From a virus, in the IMG/VR virus record IMGVR_UViG_3300009165_000006: a stretch of DNA of 64,000 nt; one strand, 5' to 3'. The position numbers and the translations under genes were made by a program. Numbering within the stretch: the stretch's first letter is position 1; each line of letters starts with the position of its first letter. This document shows, in pieces, positions 4,282-59,478 of this stretch. Under the pieces are notes generated by a model. That model did not search any database, had not been told where the DNA came from, and saw only the letters and a program-made list of their open reading frames with translations.

Positions 4282-4569
4282 ATGATCGAAGTACATATTG
4301 ACTTAAACTTATTCGAGATCACTCGAACAGAGGGGGTTCCAGACAACCCTCACGAAAATATCTACTTGGAATTGATCTCTATCCTCTGGAGTGTCAAGGA
4401 ACAAGCTTCAAACTCCTTGGTACTTTTAGCCCTCGGCTCTTACCTGACTCAGAAGTACCCATCAATCCCATGGAAGGTCGTAGCCTTCGTTGACAATGTT
4501 GAGGTGAGTCGACTCGAGTTCCAAAGCTTGGATGAGAGTGCTCCAATCTCCCGCCTAAGATCCGGTTAG
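4282..4569 (+). CDS. hypothetical protein (95 aa)
   Basis: ORF track; followed by a hairpin at 4571-4598. Confidence 0.3.
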   Translation: MIEVHIDLNLFEITRTEGVPDNPHENIYLELISILWSVKEQASNSLVLLALGSYLTQKYPSIPWKVVAFVDNVEVSRLEFQSLDESAPISRLRSG

Positions 4570-4599
4570 GTCTAAACAGATCGGTGTATTTAGACCACT

Positions 4600-5082: not shown

Positions 5083-5127
5083 TAGAGACTGCGTGTACTT
5101 GAATGCCAAGTTTGGCCCAGGAAATTC

Positions 5128-5553
5128 ATGCTCCTCTCAAGCCCCCAACGTTTGACTTGGATTTACCTCGTGTTCCAGGATACTCCACCAACATGTGGGG
5201 AGTACGTCGACCCAAAGGGAATCCACTGGCATGTTCGAAACGTGATCCGGGAGCCTGGAGTTGTCCTGCGAGAACCAGCCCCACCGGCATGGTATGTCGA
5301 GATAGCTGCGGACCACCCAGCTTACCAGCTCGAACCCGGATGGGAGCTCCGAAGGTTCTTTAGGCCCGACGAGATTGCTCTTCACCGAGAGCACCTGACG
5401 AACAGCATTCGAAGGATGAGGATCCCAGGATTCGAGTTCGTTGGAGTCTCAGAGGATGAACTCACTCTCGTGGCCAACTTTCAAGGAGTCACTAAGGCTT
5501 CAGGAGTCCCTGATGAGATCGATGGAATGCCGGTTACCATCAATTTCAGGTGA
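5128..5553 (+). CDS. hypothetical protein (141 aa)
   Basis: ORF track. Confidence 0.35.
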   Translation: MLLSSPQRLTWIYLVFQDTPPTCGEYVDPKGIHWHVRNVIREPGVVLREPAPPAWYVEIAADHPAYQLEPGWELRRFFRPDEIALHREHLTNSIRRMRIPGFEFVGVSEDELTLVANFQGVTKASGVPDEIDGMPVTINFR

Positions 5554-18554: not shown

Positions 18555-19220
18555 TTGGGAATCAGGTCCAGATCAGCATGGGATCTGGATCGTGGGGGTT
18601 TGGCCTTTGTAGAACGAGCCTACACGGGCATAGATCTCGATGGGCAAGATCCAAGCTATTTGATTGAGCAGACGTGCTTGCTTATCGCCGGCAAGGATTA
18701 CGATAGAAACATACCTAGACTTGAAGCTTGGAGGGTTCGTCTCGAAGAAGAAAGGCGCGAGAGGAAAGCCAAGCGTGATAGTGTTGAAGCAAAAGCTCGA
18801 GCTATCCTAATGGCCCATCTCGATGAAACCCAAGTGTCTGAGTTCGAATCCTCTGGATCCTTCCACGTCCTTGGTGCCGATGGTTACACCTATCTCATCA
18901 CCTCCAGGGAACAACACAATGTGTTTCGAATCGAGGAGGGACGTCGAACCTTCGAGTACTGCATCGTGACAAGGGATTTCGTACCCCTTCAGGATCAGAT
19001 GCTGACTCAAATGCTTCTCTTGACGACCCATCCTGCGATGTTTCATCAAATCGCGAACACCTGGGAAATTAGAGAAGATGGGACCCGCATCCGCATAGCA
19101 GGGCGACTAGTTGACGTTCTTGAGAACCCAGCCGCCCAAGTCGGCTGGGTTCTCAAATCTCCTTACCGGCAAGTATCTCTCTGTACATCGGGCCTAGCAC
19201 TTTTGAGACACTCCCCTTGA
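18555..19220 (+). CDS. hypothetical protein (221 aa; start uncertain)
   Basis: ORF track; overlaps ORF 18265-18612. Confidence 0.3.
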   Translation: MGIRSRSAWDLDRGGLAFVERAYTGIDLDGQDPSYLIEQTCLLIAGKDYDRNIPRLEAWRVRLEEERRERKAKRDSVEAKARAILMAHLDETQVSEFESSGSFHVLGADGYTYLITSREQHNVFRIEEGRRTFEYCIVTRDFVPLQDQMLTQMLLLTTHPAMFHQIANTWEIREDGTRIRIAGRLVDVLENPAAQVGWVLKSPYRQVSLCTSGLALLRHSP

Positions 19221-20094
19221 TGCTCTGCTCGGTAGCCCCGAGTTCGGTCATCTCCCGTTGGCAATCCTTGGCCAGGTCTGCGCAAACCGTGGTCAAGATC
19301 AATGGCATGTCCTTCATGGTATGGGTTAATTCAACCCCTCGGTCGTTAAGGCGTCCGACGGCGTTGATGACTCGCCCCTTCGTGACGTACTTGACGATGA
19401 AGTCATCAATCGGAGAAGGACCCCTTGGAGTTTTCTCTTTGGCGGCGGATGCAACTTCAGCGAACTTGGCGCATTTATGCTTACAGATTAGCCAGTTTCC
19501 AAACACGTTTCGGAGAAGAGGATTCGATCGGATGACCACCCCCTCAGCGATGTTGTCATCCCCAAAACCATTGATCTTCCCAACCGTGCTGGGTTTTTCT
19601 AAGAGCGCATCGAAGTTTGCCTGAGTCGGCTCCCCTCGCCACACCTCGGGTATTACAGGTAGCTCCATCTTGGAGCAAAGCTCGATGAACAGGTCGTAGG
19701 TGACAAAGTTCTTGGCCACCATGATGTCGAAGGCTCTGAAAAGAGGCTCCTGACCACTTGAGTATTGAACTCCCTTGGTTTTGATGCCGGGACCGTGAGC
19801 TTCACCAAAAACGGTGACTTCAGAGAACCCGTAGGACTTGATGACCTCCATCATCCTTGTTAGAAGGTCCTTCTGGGCTTTGAACTTGTTAAGCATGCTC
19901 CCGAGCGGGAAGTTCTGCCCAAGTTGATATTCGACGTCACGTGAACCATAACCAATCTCTTCGATGCTTTTCATCCCGAGTGGGAAAAAGAGACGAAAAT
20001 TCGAACCGTGGATTTTCTCGAGGGCAACTACTTCCCTGACAGAAAAGATCTCTGGGCAGTCGGAGAGTTGAACGATTGAAGGGTACTTTTCCAT
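19153..20094 (-). CDS. Rnl2-family RNA ligase (ATP-dependent nucleotidyltransferase)
   Basis: Motif I EKIHGSN (lysine adenylylation site, cf. KIHGTN of T4 Rnl2), motif III VTVFGEAHG, motif IV AEGVVIRS, motif V WLICKHKCAKF. 313 aa. Confidence 0.75.
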   Translation of the reverse strand: MEKYPSIVQLSDCPEIFSVREVVALEKIHGSNFRLFFPLGMKSIEEIGYGSRDVEYQLGQNFPLGSMLNKFKAQKDLLTRMMEVIKSYGFSEVTVFGEAHGPGIKTKGVQYSSGQEPLFRAFDIMVAKNFVTYDLFIELCSKMELPVIPEVWRGEPTQANFDALLEKPSTVGKINGFGDDNIAEGVVIRSNPLLRNVFGNWLICKHKCAKFAEVASAAKEKTPRGPSPIDDFIVKYVTKGRVINAVGRLNDRGVELTHTMKDMPLILTTVCADLAKDCQREMTELGATEQSIKGSVSKVLGPMYREILAGKEI

Positions 20095-20529: not shown

Positions 20530-20595
20530 TGAGCTGGTTCGGTGTAATCACCGATAGTGTCTCAGGAGTTCAAAAACCCCAATGGGTTTGATCGG

Positions 20596-20640
20596 TTTGA
20601 TCAACTTTGACTAGCTTTGGAGTCAACTGCTACTACCCTG
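20596..20640. repeat. copy of a ~45-nt element shared with the region upstream of tnpB (46707-46748)
   Basis: GATCAACTTTGACTAGCTTTGGAGTCAACTGCT versus GATCAACTTTGATCAGGTTTGGAGTCAACTGCT (3 mismatches in 33 nt), with similar flanks. Confidence 0.6.
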
Positions 20641-21561: not shown

Positions 21562-22451
21562 TGAACCAAGGTTCGCTCGAAGGCCTCGTTGTTGAGCACA
21601 ATCATGATGGAGGGTGGATCCGGAGCGTTCGCTTGACGAGTTGACTCATCGTACTCGTGGCAACCCCACTCACCCTTCTCCATGTAAGGTTGAACTCTTA
21701 CCCATGTTCCGATACTTGGATCAATGGCTGCAGCAGCCGCTATTGTGTCGTGAAGGGCCTTCCCCTCTGGGCGCTTTTTGAAGTAAAAAGCCATCCCTTC
21801 CTTGATGAGGTCAAGCCCAGCATGGGCTCCGGAAGGGATTCTCTCATTGACCATAGGACCCCAGAAGACACCGTGACAAACGTTCTTGGAAACCATCCGT
21901 CGAGTCCAGATAGGTGAGTTTTTACCCAGTAAACCGAGGGCTGCTTTCGAGTCGCCCCCAAGGTTGAAGGTCGGACAGGTGAGCTTGCCGGCGAACTTGG
22001 GTAGCCGGTGTTCGGGTGGGACGATGTTGTCTCCGGCGAAGCCACCCTGGCAAGTCCACGTACGGAAAAACGGCCACACCTCACTGCTAGCCTTCCAGAT
22101 GTTGGTGAGGGCCGCTCCAGTGATTAGGTGGGTGGTTGGAAAGTCCAGTAGTACCTGCTTAATGACCTCAGTGGCGCTTCCCTGGGGCTGACAGGGGGAG
22201 ATCTTCCCAAGCCAATCATAGTGGAACTGGGACACCTTAGAAGTTTGCTTCTTGAGGCTCCCAATTCCGATAGGCACGTCCGTCCGCCCAAGACGATCGA
22301 GGACATGACGAACTATCCCGACCTGGTCGAAACCTCCTGGATGGATCGTAGCCCCAACGAGTTTGGCTCGGGGATGAGTAGCAAGGAGCGCTAGAGTGAA
22401 CACGTCATCTGGGTCACTCGTTTCCATGTCGAACAGATATTCTTGAGTCAC
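21558..22451 (-). CDS. nucleoside hydrolase-like protein (IU-NH/RihA fold candidate)
   Basis: N-terminal DMETSDPDDVFTLALL resembles the DxDxxxDD aspartate cluster of nucleoside hydrolases. GTG start. Divergent from the ADP-ribosylglycohydrolase gene. Confidence 0.4.
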   Translation of the reverse strand: MTQEYLFDMETSDPDDVFTLALLATHPRAKLVGATIHPGGFDQVGIVRHVLDRLGRTDVPIGIGSLKKQTSKVSQFHYDWLGKISPCQPQGSATEVIKQVLLDFPTTHLITGAALTNIWKASSEVWPFFRTWTCQGGFAGDNIVPPEHRLPKFAGKLTCPTFNLGGDSKAALGLLGKNSPIWTRRMVSKNVCHGVFWGPMVNERIPSGAHAGLDLIKEGMAFYFKKRPEGKALHDTIAAAAAIDPSIGTWVRVQPYMEKGEWGCHEYDESTRQANAPDPPSIMIVLNNEAFERTLVH

Positions 22452-22514
22452 TTGAAATCAATCTCAGGTTATAGGAGTGGCTGCCACCTAAATTTCGATG
22501 GTGTATCAGCTACC

Positions 22515-23456
22515 ATGCCCTCTTCGTTGAGTAAAGCCCAAGCTTGTCTGCTGTGTCATGTGGTCGGAGACTCCCTTGGGAGCCTCGTAGAGTTCGAGTC
22601 CGAGGAGACCATCCTTCAGGAGCACCAAGGAGAAAAAGTGCGCTACCTCGCTGATGGGGGCACCTGGGAGACCTTGGCGGGGCAAGGCACAGACGATTCC
22701 GAAATGGCCATCACCCTAGCTAGGACTCTCATTCACCATGGTTTTTACAGCTCAACCATTATGCGGAGTATGTATTGCTATTGGCTCAATAGCCAACCAT
22801 TTGACGTTGGCAGGACCACTCAAAATGGACTCCTGGATATGCCTGACTTCCACAGCCAAGCCAATGGGGCTTTGATGCGTGTCGCCCCCTTGGGGATCTT
22901 TGGAGCGAAGAAGAAGGACTGGAGAAAGACCATGATCTGGGCGATGGAGGATGCCCTTATTACGCACCCAAATCAAATATGCTTACAAATCAATGCACTT
23001 TATGTATCGATGATCGATCAAGCAATCGGAAGTGATGCAAGCCCAGATCAACTCTACGGTGCGCTGGCCGCAACAGCAGTGGATATGGAAGCCCATCCAG
23101 TTATCCTCGAAGCTATCGACCGAGCTAGAACTGCCCCACCGGAAAACTACATGGTGAATATGGGTTGGGTTGTCCTCGCTTTCCAGAATGCGCTCTATCA
23201 ACTACTACACGCCCCGTCATTGACTGAAGGAATTGTCGATACCGTCAATCGCGGAGGTGATACCGATACCAACGGAGCAATTGCCGGTGCTCTGCTTGGG
23301 GCTGTTTACGGGATGGAGCAAGTCCCCAAGGATTGGATCGATGGAGTAACCCAATGTTGCCCATCGGTGACCAACCCCTACTCTAGAAAGCCACGTACAG
23401 GCTTCTTTTGGACTAATGATGTGCTAGAAGTAGCCAAAAAACTACTTGATAGTTGA
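22515..23456 (+). CDS. ADP-ribosylglycohydrolase (DraG/ARH family)
   Basis: GDSLG, GQGTDDSEM, GALMRVAPLG and GGDTDTNGAIAGALLGA motifs. In-frame ATG within track ORF 22443-23456. Confidence 0.8.
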   Translation: MPSSLSKAQACLLCHVVGDSLGSLVEFESEETILQEHQGEKVRYLADGGTWETLAGQGTDDSEMAITLARTLIHHGFYSSTIMRSMYCYWLNSQPFDVGRTTQNGLLDMPDFHSQANGALMRVAPLGIFGAKKKDWRKTMIWAMEDALITHPNQICLQINALYVSMIDQAIGSDASPDQLYGALAATAVDMEAHPVILEAIDRARTAPPENYMVNMGWVVLAFQNALYQLLHAPSLTEGIVDTVNRGGDTDTNGAIAGALLGAVYGMEQVPKDWIDGVTQCCPSVTNPYSRKPRTGFFWTNDVLEVAKKLLDS

Positions 23457-38792: not shown

Positions 38793-39266
38793 CTTCCGGT
38801 GTAAAGACCTTCATGGATAGGCTGAGCTGATCGAGTATCGATCTATACGACGATAGACGAGTAGCGGTTCATCGATTGGGGGATGGTGTTCAGTGACCGG
38901 CATCCAGCCTTTTCTTTCGGGTTCAGGCTTCTCTTTCATGGGGGATCCTCCGGTGGCAGGGATACACCGGTTGACTTTTGGAGGTGATCCCCGGATAATG
39001 GGGGTCATTATGGTCACCATTACGAAAGAACACCTTGAGAATTGGAAGACTTCCGGCTTTATCCTAAGTGAACTTTTCCCGATGGGAGTGATGGGAGTGT
39101 TTGATGCTCCGATTTCTTCTGAAATCAAGGTTCGGATTCTCCTACGGGAGGAGATTCTTGGTAGCAGGGGTTTGATCTATGTAACGGCGAGGGCGGTACG
39201 CTGAAGGGGGAGAGATCCCGAAGGAAGAGTTAGAGAAGGCTGCTGAGGCTGCTTCTATGGCAGCCG

Positions 39267-40016
39267 TTGAAGCTGTTAGGGGGAATGCTTGGGCTTCTTC
39301 TATTGACTGCTTGGGCTGCTTCTATGGCTGCTTGGGCTAATGCTAGAGTTACTTGGGATGCTACTAATGCCTGGAATAATGCTATCACTGCTGCCCGAGC
39401 CACTGCTTGGATGGATTTTTCTAGTGAGGAGGAAGAGAAAGAAGCCCAACTCACTGATTGCCGAGAGTGGTTGCTGAGGGTTCCTGTACCAACGAATAAT
39501 GGGGGTGATATGATAGCCAATAAGAAAGAGATCATTCCGATGGGGCTTATGGGATTGTTTGAAATCCCTATCTCCCCTATTAATACCCTATTGATACTCT
39601 TACACGAGGAGGTTCTTGGGAGGAGGGGAATGGTCTATGTGGCGGCGAAGGCTGCCCGTCGGGCCTGTACGAAGACAGAATTGTCTCATTCTGATAGCCT
39701 TCGAGCTCTAGATCTATGCGACCGATACGTTGAAGGGGAAGAGATCCCGAAAGAAGAGCTAGCGAGAGCTGCTAATGTGGCTGATGTGGCGGCTCTGTCT
39801 GCTTGTGATGCTACTTGGGGGGCGGCATGGGCTACTTGTAAGGCGGTAAGGGCTGCTAATGCCGCTTCGTCTTTGTCCCCTGTCAGGACTGATGCTTGGG
39901 CCGCTGTGGAGGCAGCTGCTGTTAGAGCCACTTCTAATGAGGAAGGAGAAAGGGAAGAGGAGAGAAAGTCCCAACTCGCTGATTGTCGAGAGTGGTTGCT
40001 GAAAGGGAACACATAA
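39267..40016 (+). CDS. paralog-family protein (tail of unit 1 fused in frame to unit 2)
   Basis: ORF track. Confidence 0.45.
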   Translation: MKLLGGMLGLLLLTAWAASMAAWANARVTWDATNAWNNAITAARATAWMDFSSEEEEKEAQLTDCREWLLRVPVPTNNGGDMIANKKEIIPMGLMGLFEIPISPINTLLILLHEEVLGRRGMVYVAAKAARRACTKTELSHSDSLRALDLCDRYVEGEEIPKEELARAANVADVAALSACDATWGAAWATCKAVRAANAASSLSPVRTDAWAAVEAAAVRATSNEEGEREEERKSQLADCREWLLKGNT

Positions 40017-40028
40017 GATGAGGTCGTT

Positions 40029-40565
40029 GTGATTACAATTACGAGTGAACTTCTCGAAAGTTGGGAGGTTTCCGACTTTATCCCAAAAGAACTACTTCCG
40101 ATGGAGGTGATGAGGTTGTTCGAAGCCCCGATTCCCTCTAGGGACAAGGTTCGGGTTCTTTTACGTGAGGAAGTTCTTGGGCGGAGGGGTTTGGTCTATG
40201 TAGCGGCCAGGGCGGCACGCCGAGCCCGTACAGTGACAGGTTGGTACCATTCTGATAGTCTTCGAGCTCTAGATCTATGTGATCGGTACGCTGCTGGAGA
40301 AGATATCCAGAAAGAAGAGTTAGAGAGAGCTATTAAGGCGGCTGAGGTGGCTTCTTCTGAAGCTGCTTCTTCTTGGGCTGCTAGGGCTGCTGCTAATGCT
40401 GCTAGAGCGATTGCTGTTCCTAGGGCTGCTTGGACTGCTACTTCTAATGAAGAGATAGAGAGAAGGTCCCAACTTACTGATTGCCGAGATTGGCTTCTAA
40501 GGGGAAACCCACAAGAAAGAGCCCCCATACTCACAAGGTATCAGCGGATAATGAGGTCCTTGTGA
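40029..40565 (+). CDS. paralog-family protein, unit 3 (GTG start)
   Basis: ORF track. Confidence 0.5.
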   Translation: MITITSELLESWEVSDFIPKELLPMEVMRLFEAPIPSRDKVRVLLREEVLGRRGLVYVAARAARRARTVTGWYHSDSLRALDLCDRYAAGEDIQKEELERAIKAAEVASSEAASSWAARAAANAARAIAVPRAAWTATSNEEIERRSQLTDCRDWLLRGNPQERAPILTRYQRIMRSL

Positions 40566-41185
40566 TAACCATTACGAGTGAACTCCTTGAGAGGTGGGAA
40601 AATTCTGACCTTATCCCGAACGAACAACTCCCGATGGGGGTGATGGATGTGTTCGGAGCATCGATCCCCTCTAAGAACAAGGTTCGGCTTCTCCTACACG
40701 AGGAGGTTCTTGGGAGGAGGGGAATGGTCTATGTGGCGGCTCGGGCTGCGCGCCGGGCCTGTACGAAGACAGAAGGGTCTCATCCTGGTAGCCTTCAAGC
40801 CTTAGATCTATGCGACCGATACGCTGAGGGGGAAGAGATCCCGAAAGAAGAGCTAGAGAGCGCTTCTAATGCGGCTGACGAAGCGGCTAGGGTTGTTTCT
40901 GAGGCTGCTTCTACTTGAGCTGCTTTTGACGCTTCTGTTTCTGATGTTAGAGATGTTTGGCCAGCGAGAGCTGCTGCTTTTGCTGCTGGAGCTGCTTTGG
41001 GTACTTGGACTGTTTCTGATGCTTGGGATGCTACTACTTGGGCTTGGGATACTACTGATGGGGTTAGTGATGAAGAAAGAAACTCCCAACTCGCCGATTG
41101 CCGCGAGTGGTTGCTGAGGAATTCCCCACAAGAAAAGGCTCCAGTACTTACTCGGTACCAACGGATAATGAGGTCGCTATCCTAA
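40562..41185 (+). pseudogene. paralog-family unit 4 with in-frame TGA at 40916-40918 where the unit-3 paralog has TGG (Trp)
   Basis: GTG 40562 overlaps the unit-3 stop (GTGA). Track ORFs 40481-40918 and 40997-41185 are in the same frame, separated by the TGA. Confidence 0.45.
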
Positions 41186-41353
41186 CCGTAGGACGGGAGC
41201 ACCTTCAAGGCCAGACTCGAGCTAGTCCAGCCCAGATCAGGTTCAGTAGAGTGACCACAATGAGGCACTCAATAGCCGCTTCTTTCGGGAACTTGAGGAC
41301 GGCACAGGTCATCAAGCAGATGACCCAGGAGGTGAGGATCCTCGTGACCACGG

Positions 41354-45244: not shown

Positions 45245-45398
45245 ACCCTTGAACCTCGATAAGAACTATCGCACGCCTTGACTCCAGTGACGAACTGTGA
45301 ACCGCTTCAACCACTCTTACGCGCGAGCTTGTCTGAATCTCAACTAAATTGAGTATAGCCTTCCAAAAGACCGTTCTGTGAAACTTATTCAAAGTTGC

Positions 45399-46643
45399 TC
45401 ATAGGAGAACTCCGATGTTCACTTCCTGCTTCAACGAGACATGACTCGTAGGCCGAAGGGTTCTCCTTCGTTCCGCCGCTAGAGGACTCTCCACAGGCTT
45501 TTTAGCGCCGAAGGCGCCTAGGTTCCTCGGGAACTCCGAGTACCTTTCCAAATTCTTCGCCGCATTCTCATCTCGATCATGAATAGCTCCACATCCTTCA
45601 CAAACCCACTCTCTCACAGAAAGAGCCAGCTGCGGCCGTTTAAGGCCGCAGCTGGTACATATCTTCGAGGATGGGAACCATCGATCAGCTACTTCTAGCT
45701 TAGATCCATACCAAGTGGTCTTGTAGGAAAGTAGCCTCTTACTTTCAAACCACCCTTGGTCCAAGATCGACCGAGAAAGGTGAGGATTCTTACTCATTCC
45801 ACGAATACCAAGGTCTTCCACAACGATGGCTGACTTGGTTTTCGCCAGCCCCGTTGTGAACTTATGAAGGAAATCCCTTCGAACGTTTGCTACTCGTGAG
45901 TGAATCCTCGCTAATCTTTGAGCTGATTTCCTCCTATTTGACGAACCCTTACGCTTCCTCGAATGAGAGCGTTGAGCCCTTCTTAACCGACTTAACGCTT
46001 GTTTCAATGGATTCGGGGCATGTATCTTCGTACAGGCCCCGTCCGAAGAGACCGTAGCGAAAGTAAGAATCCCTAGATCTACCCCAGCTTTTGGTCCTTG
46101 GATAGGAATAGGATCCGTCACGACCTCAACGGTATTGACGGATACGAACCATCGATCTGCTACCCTCGAAATCGTAGCTGAAAGGATCTCCCCACTAATC
46201 CTGCCGTTGATCTTCTCTTTGGTTCGAATAGTCCCAAGCCTAGGGAGCTTAATATACCTAGTTTGTGGCTCAATTGAACCATAGAGACGGAAGGAATCCT
46301 TTGATTTATGCTTCTTTTTGAACTTTGGGAAGCCAACTCCTTCTGATCTTCTGGACCAGAAAGCTTTGAAAGCTTTGTCAAGATCACGAAGAGCTTCCTG
46401 AGGGGCACACTTGGAAACCTCGTACATCCAAGGGAAGTCAGGGCCCTTGCGGGCGTTGAGGTCCCGATGTTCAGCGATGGCGTTGGTGAACTTCTCCTTA
46501 CCTTCTTGGGTTCGGAAGCGTTCGATCCTCCTTTGGAGGGACCAATTCCAAGCGAAGCGAGCCGTTCCGGCATGCTTCGCCAAGAACGTCCGAACCCGAT
46601 TGTTCGGATCTAACTCGAACTTATACGCCTTCCGAAGTTCCAT
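45399..46643 (-). CDS. tnpB: TnpB (IS605 OrfB-family RNA-guided RuvC nuclease)
   Basis: N-terminal MELRKAYKFELDPNNRVRTFLAKHAGTARFAWN (OrfB HTH), RuvC-I KAGVDLGI, RuvC-II AIVVEDLGIRGM, zinc finger CTSCG...CEGCG, RuvC-III IHDRDENAAKNL. 414 aa. Confidence 0.9.
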   Translation of the reverse strand: MELRKAYKFELDPNNRVRTFLAKHAGTARFAWNWSLQRRIERFRTQEGKEKFTNAIAEHRDLNARKGPDFPWMYEVSKCAPQEALRDLDKAFKAFWSRRSEGVGFPKFKKKHKSKDSFRLYGSIEPQTRYIKLPRLGTIRTKEKINGRISGEILSATISRVADRWFVSVNTVEVVTDPIPIQGPKAGVDLGILTFATVSSDGACTKIHAPNPLKQALSRLRRAQRSHSRKRKGSSNRRKSAQRLARIHSRVANVRRDFLHKFTTGLAKTKSAIVVEDLGIRGMSKNPHLSRSILDQGWFESKRLLSYKTTWYGSKLEVADRWFPSSKICTSCGLKRPQLALSVREWVCEGCGAIHDRDENAAKNLERYSEFPRNLGAFGAKKPVESPLAAERRRTLRPTSHVSLKQEVNIGVLL

Positions 46644-46706
46644 GAAGAATGGGTATCTTACACCAAGTTCAGAAAAAGTTATCGAAATTCAAGTTTGAAT
46701 AGGGTC

Positions 46707-46748
46707 GATCAACTTTGATCAGGTTTGGAGTCAACTGCTGCGACCCTC
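46707..46748. repeat. second copy of the ~45-nt element (upstream of tnpB)
   Basis: See 20596-20640. Confidence 0.6.
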
Positions 46749-49055: not shown

Positions 49056-49541
49056 ATGGCACTCCTAGACTTCGTTCTCAGTGAAAATGAGAGCTACATC
49101 AACCGATCCTACTACCATTCGCACTGCGAAGAGCACGAAGCCTCCCGAGAGGAAGTCCTTCTGTGGCGTAAAGTGAAGGAGCTGGAAGCTATCCTTCAGA
49201 GCCTCCGACCTCAGGTTGTCAATGAGCTCCTAGCGGCTATCCCTAGGGATACTGAAAAGGTGTGGGTAAATGTCAGAAGCATGGAACTCCTGAAGAAGTA
49301 CGCTGGAGACCTAATCAGACAAGAGATCCTCTCTAGTATTGACAGCACCTACCAAGAGATCTGGGGATCAATTCAGGTCCTCTCCGACTATGACGAGGAG
49401 CCGCATACCATCTGGCTCGCGGTGGACCCAAACTTACCAGATGATGGGGTCAGCACTGAGAGAGCTTCCACGTACCTGACCCCGGTAATCGAAACTCTCC
49501 GATCTGCAATTGACCATCAGCCTGTTGAGGTGGATTCATAA
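49056..49541 (+). CDS. hypothetical protein (161 aa)
   Basis: ORF track. Confidence 0.35.
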   Translation: MALLDFVLSENESYINRSYYHSHCEEHEASREEVLLWRKVKELEAILQSLRPQVVNELLAAIPRDTEKVWVNVRSMELLKKYAGDLIRQEILSSIDSTYQEIWGSIQVLSDYDEEPHTIWLAVDPNLPDDGVSTERASTYLTPVIETLRSAIDHQPVEVDS

Positions 49542-50291: not shown

Positions 50292-51218
50292 GTGCTAGCA
50301 ACAAGAAAATGCGCATTCGACTCATGCGAGATAGAGTTCGAACCAACACATCCATACCAACAATACTGCTGTACTAGGTGCAAGGAGCGCGCTCGTTGGC
50401 ATCGTTCAGAACAGATTGAAAAATCCAAGAAACGCAGCCAAAAGTGGTACTCCGATCCGGAAAATAAGCTCAACCACAGGGTAGCTCGAAGGGGTAGACG
50501 CATGTCAGTAAAAACTGGTAGAGGTGAATGGGAGATGCCAGCCCCAATGATCGAATACCTACCGGGCGGATGCGTCCCGATTGCTATTGAGTGTGGGTAT
50601 AAGTTCGAACATTGGCAACTTGCATCACTTCACGGAATGATGAGTACGATCACTGGACCTCACTCAGCCAACAACCCAGTATTTACACTGTTTCCGTGGC
50701 ACATAGGGTGCGGATGGGCCGCGTACATTCGAGATATTGAGTTAGCCAGATCGATTGCCATGCGTACACACGTGGTCAACTTCAATGACCGTGAGCAGGA
50801 ACTCGCTCTAGGATGGCTCGTACGTGTCAAAGCACCACAGATCAAGCCAGGTGCTTGGAAACTTCGAATCACAACTATTACACCTGTGTGTTGTCGCGCA
50901 ACTGGAGGGACTTATTACATGGCTCCAACTGCGAACAACATCAAAGGGACTCTTGAGGTAAACGTTGCACGAAGGCTTGGAATAAAGACTGAGAAACACG
51001 ACGTTCAGGTCAGATTGCTTGACTCAAAAGCCTTCTTAGACAAGCTTCGACTATCTGGCAATGGCAGCAAGCTTGGTGACATTTGTGGGTGGTCTGGAAG
51101 CATCGACATTGAAGTGAATGCGCTTGGTAGGCTTCTGCTTGAATGTGCCGCCCTCGGCATGGGATTGGGAGGCAAGTTGGCGTTTGGATTTGGGCGAATC
51201 AAGGTAGAGACAATATGA
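50292..51218 (+). CDS. RAMP-like protein with C-terminal glycine-rich loop (Cas6-like candidate); N-terminal Cys cluster
   Basis: Extreme C-terminus ALGMGLGGKLAFGFGRIKVETI fits the RAMP G-rich loop GhGxxxxxGhG. N-terminal CAFDSC...CCTRC. GTG start; its TGA stop overlaps the next ATG (ATGA). Confidence 0.4.
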   Translation: MLATRKCAFDSCEIEFEPTHPYQQYCCTRCKERARWHRSEQIEKSKKRSQKWYSDPENKLNHRVARRGRRMSVKTGRGEWEMPAPMIEYLPGGCVPIAIECGYKFEHWQLASLHGMMSTITGPHSANNPVFTLFPWHIGCGWAAYIRDIELARSIAMRTHVVNFNDREQELALGWLVRVKAPQIKPGAWKLRITTITPVCCRATGGTYYMAPTANNIKGTLEVNVARRLGIKTEKHDVQVRLLDSKAFLDKLRLSGNGSKLGDICGWSGSIDIEVNALGRLLLECAALGMGLGGKLAFGFGRIKVETI

Positions 51219-52387
51219 GGCCCTCGCCAAGTCAGCTGCTTCACAAAGCAATAGGAAGCCCGCGGGTTGACGGGTGCTCGGAGGCAAACGGTCTTTGCTA
51301 CGTTTGCGCAGGTCCTGTAGTTCGAGGAAAACCCGTTGTCGACTGGTGTACTTCAAGTTACACAGATCAGAATCGTGCGCGTTGTCCTGCAGCAATTTAC
51401 GTCTGTGAGGCATGTTGCATGCTTGCTGCACGTACTTTTCCAGTCCCTGGGCGCCCGCCAGGACAGTGTTCGGTTTGCGAGGGAACCGGAACTGTGAAAA
51501 AGATTCCTCCCAAGGGCAAAGGAAAGGCGTCCAAGATCGGAGACGCTTGCCCTAAGTGTGGTGGTACGGGCGAAGCGTCGTTCGGTGGCAACTTCCGCAA
51601 TTACAGCCACCTATATGAGGAGGGGTGGGATTCACCGTCACTTCCGGATGGAACCGTGATCCCAGGCTACCTGAACGCATCAAAGGGAGAAAAACCGATC
51701 GTGCTTAACTTCCTAAGGCGTGACCACCACGGCATGTGGTTCGCTGCAATCGCAGACAGTGGACAGAAGCATGTGGTGCATCATACACCACCGAACCTGC
51801 TCGGTCCAGGCGGAACGGTGCTGTTCGAGGAGACGCTTGTTAGCATCCCACCAGGTCTCTCGCTGGTAGACGAAATGACAGCACTTCTCACCGCTGGAGC
51901 AACAAAGGAAGAGATTCTCATCGGAGAATATAGCCAGTTCACATGGCTGCGCTTGGAGACAGCAATCCGTGAATTTGAGGGTCGTAACGCGAAGCGGCGG
52001 CATACTGGGTGGTTTCGTTTGGCGCTATGGCTATCTCAACGAGATGAGGCAGCAGTAGCTATAAGGATTGAAGCCGAGAAGGCAGCAGAGAAAGAACGTA
52101 AGGCACGGACCAAACAGAGAACCAAGGAGACTCAAAGTGTTGAAACAGGAAGAAAGAAAGCATCTCGAAACACTTCTTGTCGAGATGCTGTTATCGATCC
52201 GAGACCGGTATGTGAAGGACAAAGGGGGGAAGGTAAAGCCGGACTACCTCGAACAGATCCAAAACCGAGCCAGAACAAGTGCAGAAATGTCACCGACCAT
52301 CAATCGGTGGGTGAACGAGCTTCAAATAGACCTACAAATGCAGAGCATCGACACGTGGGGCAGCTCAGCCTCTTCAACGCTCCTTGA
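51215..52387 (+). CDS. cysteine-rich protein with CxxCxGxG zinc-finger repeats (possible large-subunit analogue); 3' end uncertain
   Basis: CYVCAGPV, CSVCEGTG and CPKCGGTG repeats. C-terminal ~100 codons are low complexity and overlap the next gene in another frame. Confidence 0.4.
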   Translation: MRPSPSQLLHKAIGSPRVDGCSEANGLCYVCAGPVVRGKPVVDWCTSSYTDQNRARCPAAIYVCEACCMLAARTFPVPGRPPGQCSVCEGTGTVKKIPPKGKGKASKIGDACPKCGGTGEASFGGNFRNYSHLYEEGWDSPSLPDGTVIPGYLNASKGEKPIVLNFLRRDHHGMWFAAIADSGQKHVVHHTPPNLLGPGGTVLFEETLVSIPPGLSLVDEMTALLTAGATKEEILIGEYSQFTWLRLETAIREFEGRNAKRRHTGWFRLALWLSQRDEAAVAIRIEAEKAAEKERKARTKQRTKETQSVETGRKKASRNTSCRDAVIDPRPVCEGQRGEGKAGLPRTDPKPSQNKCRNVTDHQSVGERASNRPTNAEHRHVGQLSLFNAP

Positions 52388-52607
52388 TCTAGTAAGCTTC
52401 TGCGACGAACACTCGTGCCACAGAGAAGCGAAAATGATGGTAATTCGCGATGGTGCGTTCTTGTTTGCATTGCTCCGCAAACAGATCGAACTTCGCAAAG
52501 AAGAACGGGAGCGAGAGAAGCAGGAGCGAATCCTTGGGAAACTTACCAAGGAAGACATGTTGGCAGCAGCAGAAGAGAATGGATTGTTAGTTGAGGAAAC
52601 GGCATAA
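52137..52607 (+). CDS. small alpha-helical protein (~156 aa; Cas11-like small-subunit candidate) starting at GTG inside the 3' part of the upstream gene
   Basis: AAGGAG SD 7 nt upstream of GTG 52137. Sequence is helical and charged. Its TAA stop overlaps the next ATG (TAATG). Confidence 0.4.
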   Translation: MLKQEERKHLETLLVEMLLSIRDRYVKDKGGKVKPDYLEQIQNRARTSAEMSPTINRWVNELQIDLQMQSIDTWGSSASSTLLDLVSFCDEHSCHREAKMMVIRDGAFLFALLRKQIELRKEEREREKQERILGKLTKEDMLAAAEENGLLVEETA

Positions 52608-53590
52608 TGGAGACAACTCGATACATTTCGGTGGTCAGGGCAGTTCAACCGATCGCGCATCACAAGGGTAGTATCGGAAATCACGCAACGATCATGCGTG
52701 CAGCTGTAAGGCTTCCTGGCGGAGAGATCGCAGACGTGCCAGAGGGCACTGGTAACGCAGTTAGAAATCGATTACGCCGAGCTGCCGCGATCTGTTCATT
52801 GGACGCAGCTGGAATTCTGGGGGATCCCCAACTCGAACGTGGAGCGATGCGGCTGCTGTTCAACGGCGGAATGCTCACTGGAAAGGGTGATGGGACCACG
52901 ATCAACATCGATCGATGGCGCGAGCTTGTGACGCTATTCCCGTTTCTTGGGATCCTTGGGGGTTGCATCGACAATCGTACCCAAGGCGGACAACTCAATG
53001 TTGACGCACTGAAGCTCATCTGCGAGGAAAACATGCACTCGCTAAATCCATGGACGCGACAGTGGCTCAAGGATAACAATGAAGGGATCTGCGAAAGCTC
53101 CTACCTACTTGAGAAAGTTCAACGGGTGAATATGGACCCGGAGATCCTTCCCGAGAACCTGAAACTGCTTTCGGAGGGTGCGAGGTTACAAGTCTATAAC
53201 AAGCTACTAGCACAGGGTAAAGCTCACGAGGAGGGGAACGCGATCGAGGCCGCAAAAGTCAAGAGCGACATGATGCCGCATACGTTCGAGCGAATCATTC
53301 GCGGGTCATTGTTTCAACTGTCGTTCTTGTTGAGGTCTTATAACGAGCTTGAGCGAGACGCTTTCGAGTACGCCTACTCCTGCCTATTGAACAACTTCCG
53401 TTTCGGAGGAAAACAAGCATCAGAACACGGGGAACTCGAATTCCTTGCGGGTGCCAGGGTTCACTTCAAACAATACACAGGAGAGCTCGACATCGGTGAG
53501 CGAAAAGGAACCGGTGATCTGTTCCGAGCGCACGTTACCGATCACAAGGAACAGCTGGTGAACTGGTTACGGCACGAGGTAGCAGCGTGA
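52607..53590 (+). CDS. Cas7-like backbone protein candidate (327 aa)
   Basis: Operon position between the small-subunit-like and Cas5-like genes. Gly-rich segments LLFNGGMLTGKGDGTT and FRFGGKQASEHGE. N-terminal VP.GTGNAVRNRLRR resembles the RAMP S.KG..R motif. Weak. Confidence 0.3.
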   Translation: METTRYISVVRAVQPIAHHKGSIGNHATIMRAAVRLPGGEIADVPEGTGNAVRNRLRRAAAICSLDAAGILGDPQLERGAMRLLFNGGMLTGKGDGTTINIDRWRELVTLFPFLGILGGCIDNRTQGGQLNVDALKLICEENMHSLNPWTRQWLKDNNEGICESSYLLEKVQRVNMDPEILPENLKLLSEGARLQVYNKLLAQGKAHEEGNAIEAAKVKSDMMPHTFERIIRGSLFQLSFLLRSYNELERDAFEYAYSCLLNNFRFGGKQASEHGELEFLAGARVHFKQYTGELDIGERKGTGDLFRAHVTDHKEQLVNWLRHEVAA

Positions 53591-54240
53591 ACTACGAGCC
53601 AATCAAGGTCAGCTGCAAGCTTGCCGAGGGGTTCGTAATGCGAACCCCTACCGTGTTGGATTCACTATTGGCCGCAGTGATAGCAATGCGTGAGCAGTTG
53701 CCTACTCCGATATCCGAGGACGAAATCAAAGAGATCCCAGTACCCATTGACGAAGCTGCTGGGATTCGACTGTGCTCATCGGCCATGTTTGAGATAGAGG
53801 AGACATTCGGCTCATTTCGAACACGACGCCCACCAATCGAAGAATACTGCCACTTTGGAAAGCGTGGTGGTTCCGTATCGATTGCTAGTGGCCCCGACAA
53901 GCTCTATATGATGGAGTATGACTACCAGTTCGCAGTTGACGACAAAGTGACATGGTTTGCATTGGGAGACATTGTCAGTGTACACAACTTACTGACGGAT
54001 GTATTCTACCTCGGCAAACATCGCTCAATCGGCAAAGGGCGGATCATTGAAGGCTCATGGAAGGTTGAAAGCTGTAAACCCTGGGGTGAAGGGTTTCCGG
54101 TGGTTCATAACGGCACTCCGAAGCGTCCCTTGCCGTTAGGTTGGCCTGGCGTGGCCACGACAACCAGGACCGGTTACGCAACGTTACGACCCCCCTATTG
54201 GATGTACTCTCGTGAGGAAGCCTGCTTCCTCCCAGGATAG
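53587..54240 (+). CDS. RAMP-like protein with glycine-rich loop (Cas5-like candidate, 217 aa)
   Basis: FYLGKHRSIGKGRI loop. GTG start overlapping the upstream stop (GTGA). GAGGT SD. Confidence 0.35.
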   Translation: MNYEPIKVSCKLAEGFVMRTPTVLDSLLAAVIAMREQLPTPISEDEIKEIPVPIDEAAGIRLCSSAMFEIEETFGSFRTRRPPIEEYCHFGKRGGSVSIASGPDKLYMMEYDYQFAVDDKVTWFALGDIVSVHNLLTDVFYLGKHRSIGKGRIIEGSWKVESCKPWGEGFPVVHNGTPKRPLPLGWPGVATTTRTGYATLRPPYWMYSREEACFLPG

Positions 54241-55701
54241 ATGAAAGCTCTAGCTTGCACGCTCGACACATGGGATGCCTTCGCAAGGGCCACCGGAAGA
54301 ACTGAGACCACCGGTCTCACGTTTCCCCTACGAATACTCGAGATTATCGGAAAGCCCTACGGACTAGAGCTCGAATACGCGAACAAACTGAACCGCCATG
54401 ACGCAGTGTTCATAGCGGTTCACGACTTTAGTTCGATGCTGTCCCTTGGAAAGGCGATGCAGAAGCTGAAATTGCCGCTACTTGCCAAAGACCGCGACCG
54501 AAGTCACCCGCTCGTATGGATGGGCGGACAAGGTACACGCAATCCGCTACCTATTGCCGATATTGCTGACTTGATAGTGCTTGGGGATGCAGAGCTCTCG
54601 CTGCCTCAATTACTCCAAATATGGGAGCGAAATGGGAACAGTAGAGAGTTCCTGGTGGGAGCGTCTACTGTCTCTGGGGTATTCGTTCCTTCGATCCACA
54701 ACGAAAATGAGGTGACCCTGAAAATGGGTTGGTCACCGGATATACGAACTTCACTTCAAAGCAGAAGCCTACCAATGGAACAGCATGCCAGAATCGAGCT
54801 CTCGCGTGGATGCAAGAGCAAGTGCTCATTCTGCGGACTCGGATGGATGGGTCCAGTTCGACATAACACCTTGGACGACGTACGGGATGCTATCCGAGGA
54901 GTGCCTTCGGTCCACCTGCAGGCTTGCGATGCCGAAGCTTACCCGGACATCGTTCGGTTGCGTGAGTGGATGCGCGAGAGAGGAATCAAAGACACCGGGT
55001 GTACCTCACGTCTCGATTCTAATTACGATGCTAGGAGCGAATTTCTATTCGACAAGTTGTTCAATTTCGGAATCGAGGCTGTGACCGAGCGTGTCCGCCG
55101 CAAAATCGGCAAGGCCAGACTAACGAACGACTTCATCGTTGAGGCTATGTGCGGGCTATACGAGAGACAGAAAACGCGGAAGGGTGAAGCCTGTGAGAAG
55201 ACCAATTGGCACATGATCTCTGGACTTCCGGGGGAGTTGGTATCTGAAACCGCGGAACTGGCGCAGACAATCCGAAGGCTCGATGCGACAATGCTGGAAC
55301 GGAGAATCACCGGGCAGCTAACGATCCGATGGCAACCGTTACTACCCTGTCCTGGGACACCACTGCAGTGGTGTCCCATTGGGCCGGATTGCGAGCCGTG
55401 GAGTAAGGCCTTGGCCAGAAACATCCGCAAAACGTACTGTCTGAAGCTAGAACATGGTTCCGGGAGACAGGAACGAAAGCACGCCCTGACCTGTATACTG
55501 ATGCGGTCAGGGCGTGTGGGGGCAAAGCTGATCGCACTTGAGTCAAAGTCTGCGGTTACCCCAGTTGCCGCGGTCGAGCTTACCGGGACGACTACCGGTA
55601 AGCTCGACCTTAGTGGTCCGCTTCCATGGGATTTCGTGCATGGTTACTACCCGCGAGGGGTGCTCGAAAAGGCCTACAAAAAGACCATACAATGCACGTA
55701 G
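54241..55701 (+). CDS. B12-binding-domain radical SAM enzyme
   Basis: IELSRGCKSKCSFCG contains the CxxxCxxC cluster in the RGC..C.FC context typical of cobalamin-dependent rSAM enzymes. N-terminal B12-binding-like region (IAVHDFSS...LVWMGGQGT). ATG immediately after the upstream TAG. Confidence 0.65.
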   Translation: MKALACTLDTWDAFARATGRTETTGLTFPLRILEIIGKPYGLELEYANKLNRHDAVFIAVHDFSSMLSLGKAMQKLKLPLLAKDRDRSHPLVWMGGQGTRNPLPIADIADLIVLGDAELSLPQLLQIWERNGNSREFLVGASTVSGVFVPSIHNENEVTLKMGWSPDIRTSLQSRSLPMEQHARIELSRGCKSKCSFCGLGWMGPVRHNTLDDVRDAIRGVPSVHLQACDAEAYPDIVRLREWMRERGIKDTGCTSRLDSNYDARSEFLFDKLFNFGIEAVTERVRRKIGKARLTNDFIVEAMCGLYERQKTRKGEACEKTNWHMISGLPGELVSETAELAQTIRRLDATMLERRITGQLTIRWQPLLPCPGTPLQWCPIGPDCEPWSKALARNIRKTYCLKLEHGSGRQERKHALTCILMRSGRVGAKLIALESKSAVTPVAAVELTGTTTGKLDLSGPLPWDFVHGYYPRGVLEKAYKKTIQCT

Positions 55702-55715: not shown

Positions 55716-55958
55716 TCAGTTAGATCGTTTTGGCGGAAGAAGCTCGTGAAAAACGAATCCATCCGTAGACTCTGTAAGAAACAGACGCATCCCCGGCTTC
55801 AATTCCGGGTACTTCGCCACATCCTCAGCGGTAATAGTGAACTTGAAAATCGTATCATCCACTTCGTCTGCCATACCCTTTTGGGCGCGTTCCCAAAAGT
55901 CAAGAACAAACTTGGGCTCTCCTTGAAACTTGTCAGTCAATCGATCTCCATTCAGCAT
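55716..55958 (-). CDS. hypothetical protein (80 aa)
   Basis: ORF track; promoter-like motif upstream. Confidence 0.35.
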   Translation of the reverse strand: MLNGDRLTDKFQGEPKFVLDFWERAQKGMADEVDDTIFKFTITAEDVAKYPELKPGMRLFLTESTDGFVFHELLPPKRSN

Positions 55959-58122: not shown

Positions 58123-59478
58123 ATGAAAGTCCCTGAAAGAGTCCGTTTTATCTGCAGTATCTTGAATCAAGCAGGCTTTGAAGCCTGGGTTGTTGGTGGC
58201 GCAGTGCGCGACTCTATACTTGGCCGAGAAGCTCACGACTTCGATGTGGCCACTAATGCTCTCCCTGATAGAGTCGTCAGGCTGTTCAGTCGTGTCATTG
58301 AGACCGGTATCCAACATGGAACGGTCACGGTCATGATTGAAAACGAGGGCTTCGAGGTCACCACCTTCCGTGGTGAAGGTACCTACTCGGATGGGCGCCA
58401 CCCAGATAGTGTCAGGTTCTTGGACTCTATCATCGAGGACTTGGCTCGTCGAGACTTCACAATGAATGCGGTCGCGTACGACCCCTTGACAGGGAAGTTC
58501 TGTGACCCCTTCGGTGGGGTGCAGGATATCGAATGCATGCTCATCCGAGCTGTAGGATCTCCTGAAGAAAGATTCCAAGAAGACGGCTTGAGAGTCATGC
58601 GAGCTATTCGTTTCATGAGTACTCTGGGATTCTCCATTGAACCACGTACTCTCGAAGGTATGGCGAAGATTGATTCCCTAGCCTCCCTAGCCAAGGTCAG
58701 CGTTGAACGGGTCAGGGACGAGCTCTTTAGGATCATGGGCTCGAAAGCACCCTCTCGTTCAATGAATGCCATAGTTCATACCGGAGTCTTGGACGTGATC
58801 CTACTAGAGATGCGCCCGATGGTTGGGTGTACTCAAAATCGGTACCATTCCTACGACGTTTGGACCCACACGATGGTTACTCTCGACCATTGTCCGGATG
58901 ACAACCCTATCCTCAGGTTTGGGGCTCTCTTTCACGATATCGCAAAGCCCGAGGTGAAAGGGGTTCACCCAGTCCATGGGGATGCCACTTTCTACGATCA
59001 TGAGCTGGTGGGGGCAAAGAAGACCGATGAGATCTTGACTCGGTTGAGGTTCTCAACCGAAGATCGGGAGAAGATTGTTCACTTGGTTGAGCACCACTTC
59101 ATCCGGTACGAACACGAGTGGTCGAATTCAGCGCTTCGTCGTTGGGTTCGGAAGGTTGGATTGGAGAGCGTCCCCACTTTCTGCACTCTCGCCCGGGCGG
59201 ACATCGCCGGGAAAGGGCCTATAGCCACAGTTGAATCCGAGAATTCAGTCATTGATGACCTGGAGAATCGGGTATCCAGACTGCAATTGACCGAAGTGAT
59301 CCCAACGTCAATCAAGGTGCTTGCCATCGACGGGAACGACGTGATGGCTCACTTGGGTATAGGACCAGGCCCTAGGATAGGAAGAGTGCTAGAAAGCCTT
59401 CTAGACGCCGTAACGGAGGACCCAGAACTCAACACCCGGGAGAAGCTCTTGGAGCTTGCCAGGGAAGTTCAAGTGTGA
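58123..59478 (+). CDS. cca: CCA-adding tRNA nucleotidyltransferase (class II) with HD domain
   Basis: WVVGGAVRDSILGREAHDFDVAT (GGxVRD...DxD), RDFTMNA, and HD domain HSYDVWTHT...LFHDIAKP. 451 aa. Confidence 0.85.
   Translation: MKVPERVRFICSILNQAGFEAWVVGGAVRDSILGREAHDFDVATNALPDRVVRLFSRVIETGIQHGTVTVMIENEGFEVTTFRGEGTYSDGRHPDSVRFLDSIIEDLARRDFTMNAVAYDPLTGKFCDPFGGVQDIECMLIRAVGSPEERFQEDGLRVMRAIRFMSTLGFSIEPRTLEGMAKIDSLASLAKVSVERVRDELFRIMGSKAPSRSMNAIVHTGVLDVILLEMRPMVGCTQNRYHSYDVWTHTMVTLDHCPDDNPILRFGALFHDIAKPEVKGVHPVHGDATFYDHELVGAKKTDEILTRLRFSTEDREKIVHLVEHHFIRYEHEWSNSALRRWVRKVGLESVPTFCTLARADIAGKGPIATVESENSVIDDLENRVSRLQLTEVIPTSIKVLAIDGNDVMAHLGIGPGPRIGRVLESLLDAVTEDPELNTREKLLELAREVQV

Follow-up and report, generated by a model that had tools for sequence, protein, structure and literature searches.

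Subtype IV-B, which comes without an array, a nuclease, or a helicase, is the least understood CRISPR-Cas subtype (PMC8175902, PMC7038947). In the IV-B complex, Csf2 forms a filament on RNA that is intertwined with Cas11, and no nuclease is present (PMC8175902). A nearly invariant CysH-like partner of IV-B is predicted to act by adenylation and has been proposed to modify nucleic acids (PMC8175902, PMC7038947), and Pinilla-Redondo et al. have suggested epigenetic or restriction-modification-related roles for the subtype (PMC7038947). Here we describe an array-less, type IV-B-like CRISPR effector cassette at positions 50292–55701 (+ strand) of IMG/VR virus record IMGVR_UViG_3300009165_000006, a 64,000-nucleotide (nt) stretch of DNA (hereafter the window) from what looks like a large phage. 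The cassette comprises six open reading frames (ORFs) on the + strand, in the order zinc-ribbon-Cas6, Csf1, Cas11, Csf2, Csf3, and a radical S-adenosylmethionine (rSAM) enzyme, the last in the place of the CysH-like enzyme. The gene identities, the linkage of the rSAM enzyme to csf genes, the exchange of enzymes in one slot, the conservation of a C-terminal motif in Csf1, and the absence of nearby arrays are established. The features of the cassette are:

50292–51218, + strand: cas6-like gene, 308 amino acids (aa); structure comparison and G-rich loop
51215–52387, + strand: csf1 (Cas8-like large subunit), 390 aa; PADLOC, 1.4e-13
52137–52607, + strand: cas11 (small subunit), 156 aa; PDB 7jhy_h, E = 5.2e-6
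52361–52375, + strand: QLSLF codons (candidate clamp motif), 3 residues before the Csf1 C-terminus
52607–53590, + strand: csf2 (type IV Cas7 backbone), 327 aa; PADLOC, 9e-33, and PDB 7jhy_e
53587–54240, + strand: csf3 (type IV Cas5), 217 aa; PADLOC, 1.3e-29
54241–55701, + strand: rSAM enzyme in the CysH slot, 486 aa; PF19864, 3e-18, and PF04055, 1.4e-8

An original prediction, made from the DNA letters alone, had described these genes as a translationally coupled run of RAMP-like effector genes ending in a cobalamin-type rSAM enzyme. The coupled junctions have the sequences it had given, with ATGA at 51215–51218 between cas6 and csf1, TAATG at 52605–52609 between cas11 and csf2, GTGA at 53587–53590 between csf2 and csf3, and TAG-ATG at 54238–54243 between csf3 and the rSAM gene. 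The junction of csf1 and cas11 is not the simple coupling that had been supposed; instead, cas11, read from its most likely start, shares the final 251 nt of csf1 in a different frame. The peptides that had been quoted are all present: GLGGKLAFGFG at the C-terminus of the first protein, LGKHRSIGKG in the fifth, RGCKSKCSFCG in the sixth, and, in the second, DnaJ-type CxxCxGxG repeats in the form of CSVCEGTG and CPKCGGTG.

The Cas roles that had been proposed from short motifs are recovered by profile searches. In particular, the protein in the large-subunit position is Csf1; the PADLOC typeIV_Cas8/Csf1 profile covers its aa 6–279 (1.4e-13), the core of ~aa 1–280 carries the two CxxCxGxG zinc knuckles, and a C-terminal extension of ~110 aa follows. 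The full-length csf1 ORF is kept in relatives, 295 of which were returned when 1.84 billion representatives were searched exhaustively with phmmer. The Cas7-like candidate is Csf2, with matches to PADLOC typeIV_Cas7 (9e-33) and Csf2_0_IV (3.5e-31) and with the IV-B Csf2 as its best PDB sequence match (7jhy_e, 5e-6). Relatives of the window Csf2 are rare, forming 30 clusters, and a single-sequence scan of IMG/VR with Csf2 gave no confirmed relative. The Cas5-like protein is Csf3 (PADLOC typeIV_Cas5 Csf3_0_IV, 1.3e-29; NCBIfam cas5_csf3, 9e-8); its homologues carry the annotation PF27782 Csf3, and its PDB sequence search reached only E ~1, to IV-A Csf3. The protein in the small-subunit place is Cas11. 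Its single sequence had no match in domain, PADLOC, or PDB searches; a profile of 18 homologues matches chain 7jhy_h of the type IV-B complex, "Csf4 (Cas11)", at E = 5.2e-6. The cas11 frame is open from 52068, and its most likely start is the GTG at 52137, with an AAGGAG Shine-Dalgarno sequence 7 nt upstream. The NCBIfam type IV models match Csf1 (cas8u_csf1, 4e-5), Csf2 (cas7_csf2), and Csf3 under their trusted cutoffs, and the lineage is therefore divergent.

The same four effector genes stand in the same order in subtype IV-B, on the Mycobacterium sp. JS623 plasmid (PDB 7JHY) and in phage SPI1. As in IV-B, Cas11 is present, Csf2 and Cas11 being closest to 7JHY chains, and the cassette is borne by a mobile element and has no helicase, nuclease, adaptation genes, or adjacent array. 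It differs from IV-B in that the rSAM enzyme stands in for the "nearly invariant" CysH-like enzyme, in that a zinc-ribbon-Cas6 is present where IV-B normally has no Cas6, and in that Csf1 has a long tail with a clamp-type motif, overprinted on cas11, that is absent from SPI1 and from the related locus L003 (loci related to the window are numbered with L). Twelve exceptional IV-B loci with Cas6 have been described (PMC7038947). Subtypes IV-A and IV-D have a DinG or RecD helicase, Cas6/Csf5, and an array, whereas the window cassette has neither helicase nor array and has Cas11, with the rSAM enzyme as its accessory. Thus the marks of type IV are found, namely the signature protein Csf2 and contiguous, translationally coupled genes for Csf3 and Csf1, and of the marks of IV-B we find cas11 between csf1 and csf2 and the absence of an array at the locus, but neither the cysH-like accessory nor the absence of Cas6.

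A scan of selected neighbour ORFs among the 83 large ORFs of the window found no DinG or RecD helicase, HD-Cas10, or adaptation gene in or beside the cassette, in line with the predicted lack of an adaptation module, and no CysH-like ORF is present anywhere in the 64-kb window. Dozens of independent metagenomic contigs repeat this gene order, at 29–98% protein identity, and the arrangement is therefore not a chance one. The window cassette is almost certainly a genuine IV-B-like module. Promoter and terminator scans around the cassette found no more sites than in shuffled sequence. The SPI1 cassette, for its part, lies in a cultured actinophage of Skermania (L044; KR011061.1, Orf40–Orf44, 32609–36242) and is a canonical csf1-cas11-csf2-csf3-cysH run with an SGGKDS PP-loop and a Csf1 that has no clamp-motif tail; the record lists all five products as hypothetical proteins.

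To describe the contexts of the rSAM gene, we gathered loci by exact look-up and by family-alignment scans of viral, genome, and metagenome collections and annotated them with iteratively built hidden Markov models. The set contains 30 rSAM groups that are distinct at ≤95% identity, and in 25 of them the flanking DNA is long enough for a judgement. A csf3 gene lies less than 700 nt from the rSAM gene in 24 of these 25 loci, almost always co-oriented, and csf2, cas11, and csf1 are usually present too; the linkage is still seen at 29–30% rSAM identity (L039). An explanation by coincidence, in which the rSAM gene is an unrelated neighbour that encodes a metabolic enzyme or a maturase of ribosomally synthesized and post-translationally modified peptides (RiPPs), could draw on the weak NCBIfam matches of the enzyme to RiPP and other rSAM families (E = 1e-4 to 1e-2) and on one csf-less locus, L038. 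It is contradicted by the linkage in 24 of 25 informative loci across 29–98% identity, by an rSAM start codon that directly abuts the csf3 stop, by the lack of any recognised precursor peptide or RiPP genes, and by the failure to find the family outside the csf context in GenBank phages or PLSDB plasmids. The conserved linkage therefore effectively refutes this explanation, which we regard as extremely improbable, and the rSAM enzyme is very probably a functional partner of the Csf module.

Several further genes stand beside the rSAM gene in related loci. A ~120-aa protein (…WTQKSTHPQTAxDGA…KVPDSPEQEEWIRKKR) directly follows it, with overlapping stop and start, in L002 (13093–13464), L009 (11416–11784), and L041 (463–822); the window does not have this protein and carries in its place an 80-aa ORF on the minus strand (55716–55958). 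DNA methyltransferase genes lie in or beside cassettes in L013 (7381–8001; N6_N4_Mtase, 29.6 bits, between csf3 and the rSAM gene) and L003 (11897–12991), and a C5-methyltransferase-like gene, judged from an N-terminal FFSGVGA motif only, lies in L038 (4478–6289, − strand). The vicinity of L003 also holds DpdA and two genes for phosphoadenosine phosphosulfate (PAPS) reductases.

The original prediction had placed the rSAM enzyme in the slot of the helicase/nuclease or of the CysH-like ancillary protein, and close relatives indeed carry a CysH-like gene exactly where the window has the rSAM gene. Specifically, a CysH (PAPS-reductase) gene immediately follows csf3 in L001 (52% Csf2 identity) and in the P0022 contig and also follows csf3, at the cut end of the locus, in L008, while the rSAM gene follows csf3 in L002 (78% Csf2 identity), L005 (98%), L007 (47–49%), and L009; sister loci with CysH are found at 42–52% Csf2 identity. 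In a neighbour-joining tree of Csf2, which is crude and built on a sample biased to rSAM loci, the CysH-type loci L001 and L008 are nested inside rSAM-type clades, indicating repeated exchange in the same slot. This interchange narrows the possible jobs of the partner and points towards a covalent modification that either class performs or contributes to. PP-loop ATPase-like and rSAM enzymes are repeatedly met side by side in the modification of nucleic-acid bases.

That one slot is filled by either class argues against an alternative in which the substrate of the rSAM enzyme is a protein, such as one of the Csf subunits, the clamp, or a defence protein of the host, or in which its product is a small molecule or a nucleotide and the Csf complex serves as sensor or regulator. 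The DNA methyltransferases embedded in some cassettes, and a scaffold made of a filament that binds RNA and is putatively tethered to the clamp, likewise speak against it. It finds support in the signalling role that Shmakov et al. suggested for the CysH of IV-B (bioRxiv 10.1101/270033) and in the lack of any recognised TRAM-like nucleic-acid-binding domain in the rSAM enzyme, and we consider it quite unlikely.

A radical-SAM partner is not mentioned in the 2025 classification update (PMC12669027), the deep-clustering survey (PMC10910872), the type IV survey (PMC7038947), or the survey of CRISPR-linked genes (10.1101/270033), and we found no earlier description of an rSAM-type IV variant in the literature searched, whose coverage leaves out many subscription papers. 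Because the rSAM cassettes have no arrays, array-anchored discovery pipelines would miss them. The suggestion of an uncharacterised effector variant thus agrees with what we find: the cassette is of type IV, and the rSAM type is a variant of IV-B, apparently undescribed before, that comprises at least about 25 distinct metagenomic lineages.

The rSAM enzyme (486 aa) consists of an N-terminal Rossmann/B12-binding-like domain and an rSAM core, a partial TIM barrel with the CxxxCxxC [4Fe-4S] motif of the superfamily (C191-x3-C195-x2-C198). A search of 5.8 billion proteins returned ~50 clusters of its family, of ~490 aa and 35–98% identity at E < 1e-80, followed by a sharp gap from E ~1e-80 to ~1e-25, where cellular TIGR03960-type enzymes begin; these are 20–29% identical to the window enzyme, which scores 67.6 bits with TIGR03960 against an NCBIfam cutoff of 462.3. 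The enzymes of the cassettes thus form a family of their own, some 50 clusters that come from metagenomes only; it is absent from GenBank phage records, PLSDB plasmids, and PHROGs and has no characterised member.

By sequence, the enzyme had no match in the PDB. Structures were predicted for it and for the Cas6-like protein, and the predicted rSAM structure matches MgmA (22.1), RimO (19.3), CysS (18.6), MiaB (17.9), AprD4 (17.5), TsrM (17.0), and TokK (13.5). These structural neighbours are rSAM enzymes with an N-terminal Rossmann-type domain, and several are cobalamin-dependent methylases; MgmA, CysS, TsrM, and TokK belong to the B12-dependent rSAM methylases, MiaB and RimO to the methylthiotransferases of RNA and protein, and the N-terminal domains of RimO, MiaB, and AprD4 are not known to bind B12. 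Of the predicted cobalamin-type rSAM enzyme, the rSAM part is secured by PF19864 and PF04055, while dependence on B12, which comes from the grouping by fold, is plausible. The enzyme shares the N-terminal Rossmann-type domain with MgmA, CysS, TsrM, TokK, and the uncharacterised TIGR03960 family but has very low sequence similarity to them and is found, L038 apart, exclusively in the context of csf cassettes, and, unlike the TIGR03960 family, it has no DUF2344 fusion. The C-terminal region is helical, with TIGR00089 reached only at E = 0.024, and neither TRAM nor another nucleic-acid-binding domain was recognised. Two other assignments were rejected. The only invariant cysteines in the family are C191, C195, and C198, and this lack of auxiliary-cluster cysteines outside the rSAM triad, together with a helical C-terminus in place of a TRAM domain, argues against a methylthiotransferase of the MiaB/RimO kind; a RiPP maturase is contradicted by the csf context.

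The Csf1 tail extends ~110 residues past the profile match, is rich in R, A, E, and K, is poorly conserved, and ends in GQLSLFNAP (C-terminal peptide HRHVGQLSLFNAP). It is encoded by 52051–52387, in a frame other than that of cas11, whose 5′ part it overlies, and both frames stay open in every relative that has a Csf1 tail. The pentapeptide QL[S/D]LF, loosely QxxLF, is a common bacterial clamp-binding motif, and QLSLPL is a tight-binding hexapeptide (PMC12309361). The window Csf1 presents QLSLF 3 residues before its C-terminus, as an accessible peptide of the kind found in β-clamp binders, and the Csf1 ends of relatives carry QLSLF, QLSIF, QLCLF, QLDLF, QLALF, QLGLF, QLDMF, QTSLF, QRSLF, QLGLPGF, or QIRLPGF. 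A match to Q..[LM]F or Q..LP.F falls within the last 40 residues in 15 of 20 distinct locus Csf1s, whereas sets of shuffled tails contained 0.04 motif-bearing tails on average and never more than 1; among the best 150 of the 295 Csf1 relatives, the motif falls within the final 45 residues in 84 and frequently forms the extreme C-terminus. Where the tail is missing, Csf1 stops right after "LWLSQR(D/E)E" and cas11 starts within a few codons, so that the tail looks like a read-through extension over cas11.

The clamp-tethered proteins Tn7 TnsE, insertion sequence (IS) transposases, Hda, and translesion polymerases have QL[S/D]LF clamp motifs (for the transposase–clamp interaction see PMC4549789). 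As in those proteins, a short C-terminal QLxLF/QLxLPxF peptide ends a flexible tail in Csf1; here, by contrast, the bearer of the candidate motif is a CRISPR large subunit. We judge that the chance of the Csf1 tail binding the β clamp is even or slightly better. No report linking Csf1 or IV-B to the sliding clamp was found in the literature searched, within the coverage stated above. The motif offers a concrete hypothesis, namely that the complexes act at replication forks.

The first gene, predicted to be Cas6-like, encodes an N-terminal zinc ribbon with four cysteines and helices (~aa 1–70) and a Cas6 domain (~aa 85–308). Specifically, the Cas6 domain has the two ferredoxin/RRM domains and the C-terminal GhGxxxxxGhG loop (here GLGGKLAFGFG) that define the family, and comparison of its predicted structure finds the Cas6 fold, with further Cas6 and Csf5 chains among the matches. 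Two conserved histidines, H114 and H124, are candidates for the catalytic residues. Scanning the full window with Rfam and for tRNAs returned nothing, and thus no known RNA gene that would explain the presence of Cas6. Among related loci, the Cas6 domain is present only in the window, L005, L006, L007, L009, and L025. Almost every related locus without Cas6, and none with Cas6, has a domain of ~78 aa with the consensus GRxFxTPHAVxRYxER...AHxVK...WRGPKPxRLRL...LVTVL. This domain occurs alone or fused to a zinc ribbon as in the Cas6 gene, and is placed before csf1, between csf3 and the rSAM gene, or after the rSAM gene:

L001, 8506–8736: ~78-aa domain
L002, 8353–8598: ~78-aa domain
L013, 9464–9784: ~78-aa domain
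L038, 7653–7961: ~78-aa domain
L008, L011, L016, L020, L021, L024, L027, L029, and L032–L036: ~78-aa domain also present

The domain, ending in "VTVL", had no Pfam, PHROG, or PDB-profile match. The mutual exclusivity of Cas6 and the ~78-aa domain suggests an equivalent role, perhaps in RNA binding or processing, and the alternation hints at an RNA-handling component that has gone unrecognised. The zinc ribbon and the ~78-aa domain form one ORF in L002, L024, and L027, and lie in different, overlapping frames upstream of csf1 in L001 (8228–8760) and L008 (3340–3899), where the split could reflect a programmed frameshift or assembly errors.

The sole CRISPR-like array in the window, at 1605–1936, has 5 repeats of 37 nt (GGATCCAATCCTTTTTGATTGCCCAATTCGTTGGGAC) and spacers of 35–40 nt. 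The prediction that no array adjoins the cassette and that the only one belongs to a Cas12-like locus is correct for the 64-kb window, the range within which it is valid. Directly beside the array, at 115–1572 (+), is a compact Cas12-like ORF of 485 aa with weak Cas12f/TNB matches and with the motifs AIDLG, IIEDL, and NTDFG as candidate RuvC catalytic sites; it may be N-terminally incomplete, because RuvC-I would fall near residue 108. The repeat has a hairpin 2 nt from its 3′ end, as in Cas12-type repeats, rather than the hairpin and 8-nt handle of Cas6-type repeats, and we take its 3′ end to resemble Cas12j/CasPhi repeats. An exact search of IMG/VR with the repeat found no match, and the spacers gave only chance matches of 12–13 nt when compared with all related loci fetched. 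Right after the array, at 1979–2452 (+), is a gene matching PADLOC "mad3", a methylation-associated defence component (7e-21).

No array was found within 8–10 kb of the cassette in the window or in any of ~40 related loci, and scans of all loci for arrays and mini-arrays returned only coding repeats and one two-copy repeat. The latter is an exact 25-nt direct repeat (AGAATCAATAGCCACTGGAGGCTTC) in L009, at 19927–19951 and 19999–20023, 72 nt apart and ~8.5 kb downstream of the rSAM gene, and might be a mini-array or a chance occurrence. The lack of arrays near the ~40 related cassettes bears on the alternative that the module carries out crRNA-guided type IV interference in trans, with Cas6 processing transcripts of the phage array (1605–1936) or of a host array, the Csf complex binding competitor DNA that matches, and the rSAM enzyme damaging or blocking this target. 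This alternative gains from a genuine Cas6 fold with conserved histidines and G-rich loop, from the existence of an array in the same genome, from the use of arrays and adaptation machinery in trans by type IV systems (PMC7038947), and from a documented plasmid that carries IV-B and type V together (PMC12669027). It loses, besides the missing arrays, from the absence of Cas6 in most relatives, from a window repeat with a Cas12-type hairpin and no Cas6-type 8-nt handle, from spacers that matched no related locus, and from the position of the array directly beside its own Cas12-like gene. We regard guided interference in trans as unlikely.

We consider it an even call whether the cassette encodes a phage-borne, clamp-tethered RNA–protein scaffold that brings in a nucleic-acid-modifying enzyme. 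By homology to the solved IV-B complex, Csf2, Cas11, Csf3, and Csf1 would assemble on RNA into a Cascade/Csm-like filament, with the Cas6 domain perhaps binding or processing that RNA. The disordered Csf1 tail, to judge from its QLSLF motif, could attach the complex to the β sliding clamp of the host and so to replicating DNA. The rSAM enzyme, like CysH in sister cassettes, would then be a catalytic output other than a nuclease and would covalently modify the nucleic acid that is bound or lies nearby, most likely by radical methylation. That the output is nucleic-acid modification we put a little below an even chance. The cassette probably serves in contests among mobile elements or in guarding the DNA of the phage, not in classical adaptive immunity. 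The DNA methyltransferases embedded in L013, L003, and apparently L038 can be taken as a DNA-modification theme and count in favour of this scaffold.

The same RNA-binding filament would also fit a guide-RNA sponge or anti-CRISPR, in which the complex soaks up host crRNAs or small RNAs and the rSAM enzyme inactivates them. The IV-B complex does bind heterogeneous small RNAs (PMC8175902), the module is phage-borne and array-less, and the idea has been raised in the literature; its own proposers thought it unlikely owing to complexity (PMC7038947), and it leaves the clamp-binding tail and the embedded DNA methylases unexplained. We hold such a sponge to be very unlikely.

Several observations weigh against the clamp-tethered, nucleic-acid-modifying scaffold. 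The partnership of the rSAM enzyme and Csf is known from gene linkage rather than from physical association, and in L038, the sole exception to that linkage, the rSAM gene stands without csf genes, between a small conserved domain protein before it and an HNH gene after it, with an apparent C5 DNA methyltransferase nearby. Cobalamin use is read from the fold, and MgmA, the best structural match, acts on protein rather than nucleic acid. Csf1 is tail-less in L003/L004, L010, L015, and phage SPI1, and the QLSLF codons coincide with a semi-conserved Cas11 loop, SSxC, so that their conservation may stem partly from the other frame. Lastly, the presence of Cas6 and of a type V-like array 48 kb away leaves room for a crRNA-guided role in trans.

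A more specific form of the scaffold mechanism is an RNA-scaffolded and possibly RNA-guided epigenetic writer, in which a clamp-riding Csf ribonucleoprotein would have its rSAM or PP-loop enzyme mark nascent DNA or bound RNA. This form is speculative and, in our estimate, unlikely. If true, it would assign a biochemical output to subtype IV-B and would make this the first CRISPR-derived system with a radical enzyme as effector, where other systems use a nuclease, a helicase, a transposase, or a signalling module.

Both the window and its relatives have the appearance of large phages. The relatives include IMG/VR viral contigs and contigs of 67–120 kb and carry phage-like genes for a DUF3799 exonuclease, SSB, DnaB, and lysins. 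The window itself encodes an RNA ligase (19153–20094, −), an ADP-ribosylglycohydrolase (22443–23456, +), and a CCA-adding tRNA nucleotidyltransferase (58123–59478, +); ARAGORN found no tRNA gene in the window, and L001 and L045 keep the gene for the CCA-adding enzyme in synteny with the cassette. At 39194–41187, four diverged tandem copies of a ~530–560-nt unit (60–78% identity) lie in coding sequence, which suggests a large repeat-containing protein. A TnpB/IS605-OrfB element is present at 45371–46748 (−), and the end of a related element lies at 20591–20639. In L045, a sister contig that is 98–99% identical to the window, the element is at a different site (3767–5141), and the two copies of the element are just 92% identical; the L045 element interrupts the region equivalent to ~49242–49379 of the window, within the ORF at 49056–49541, ~1 kb upstream of cas6.

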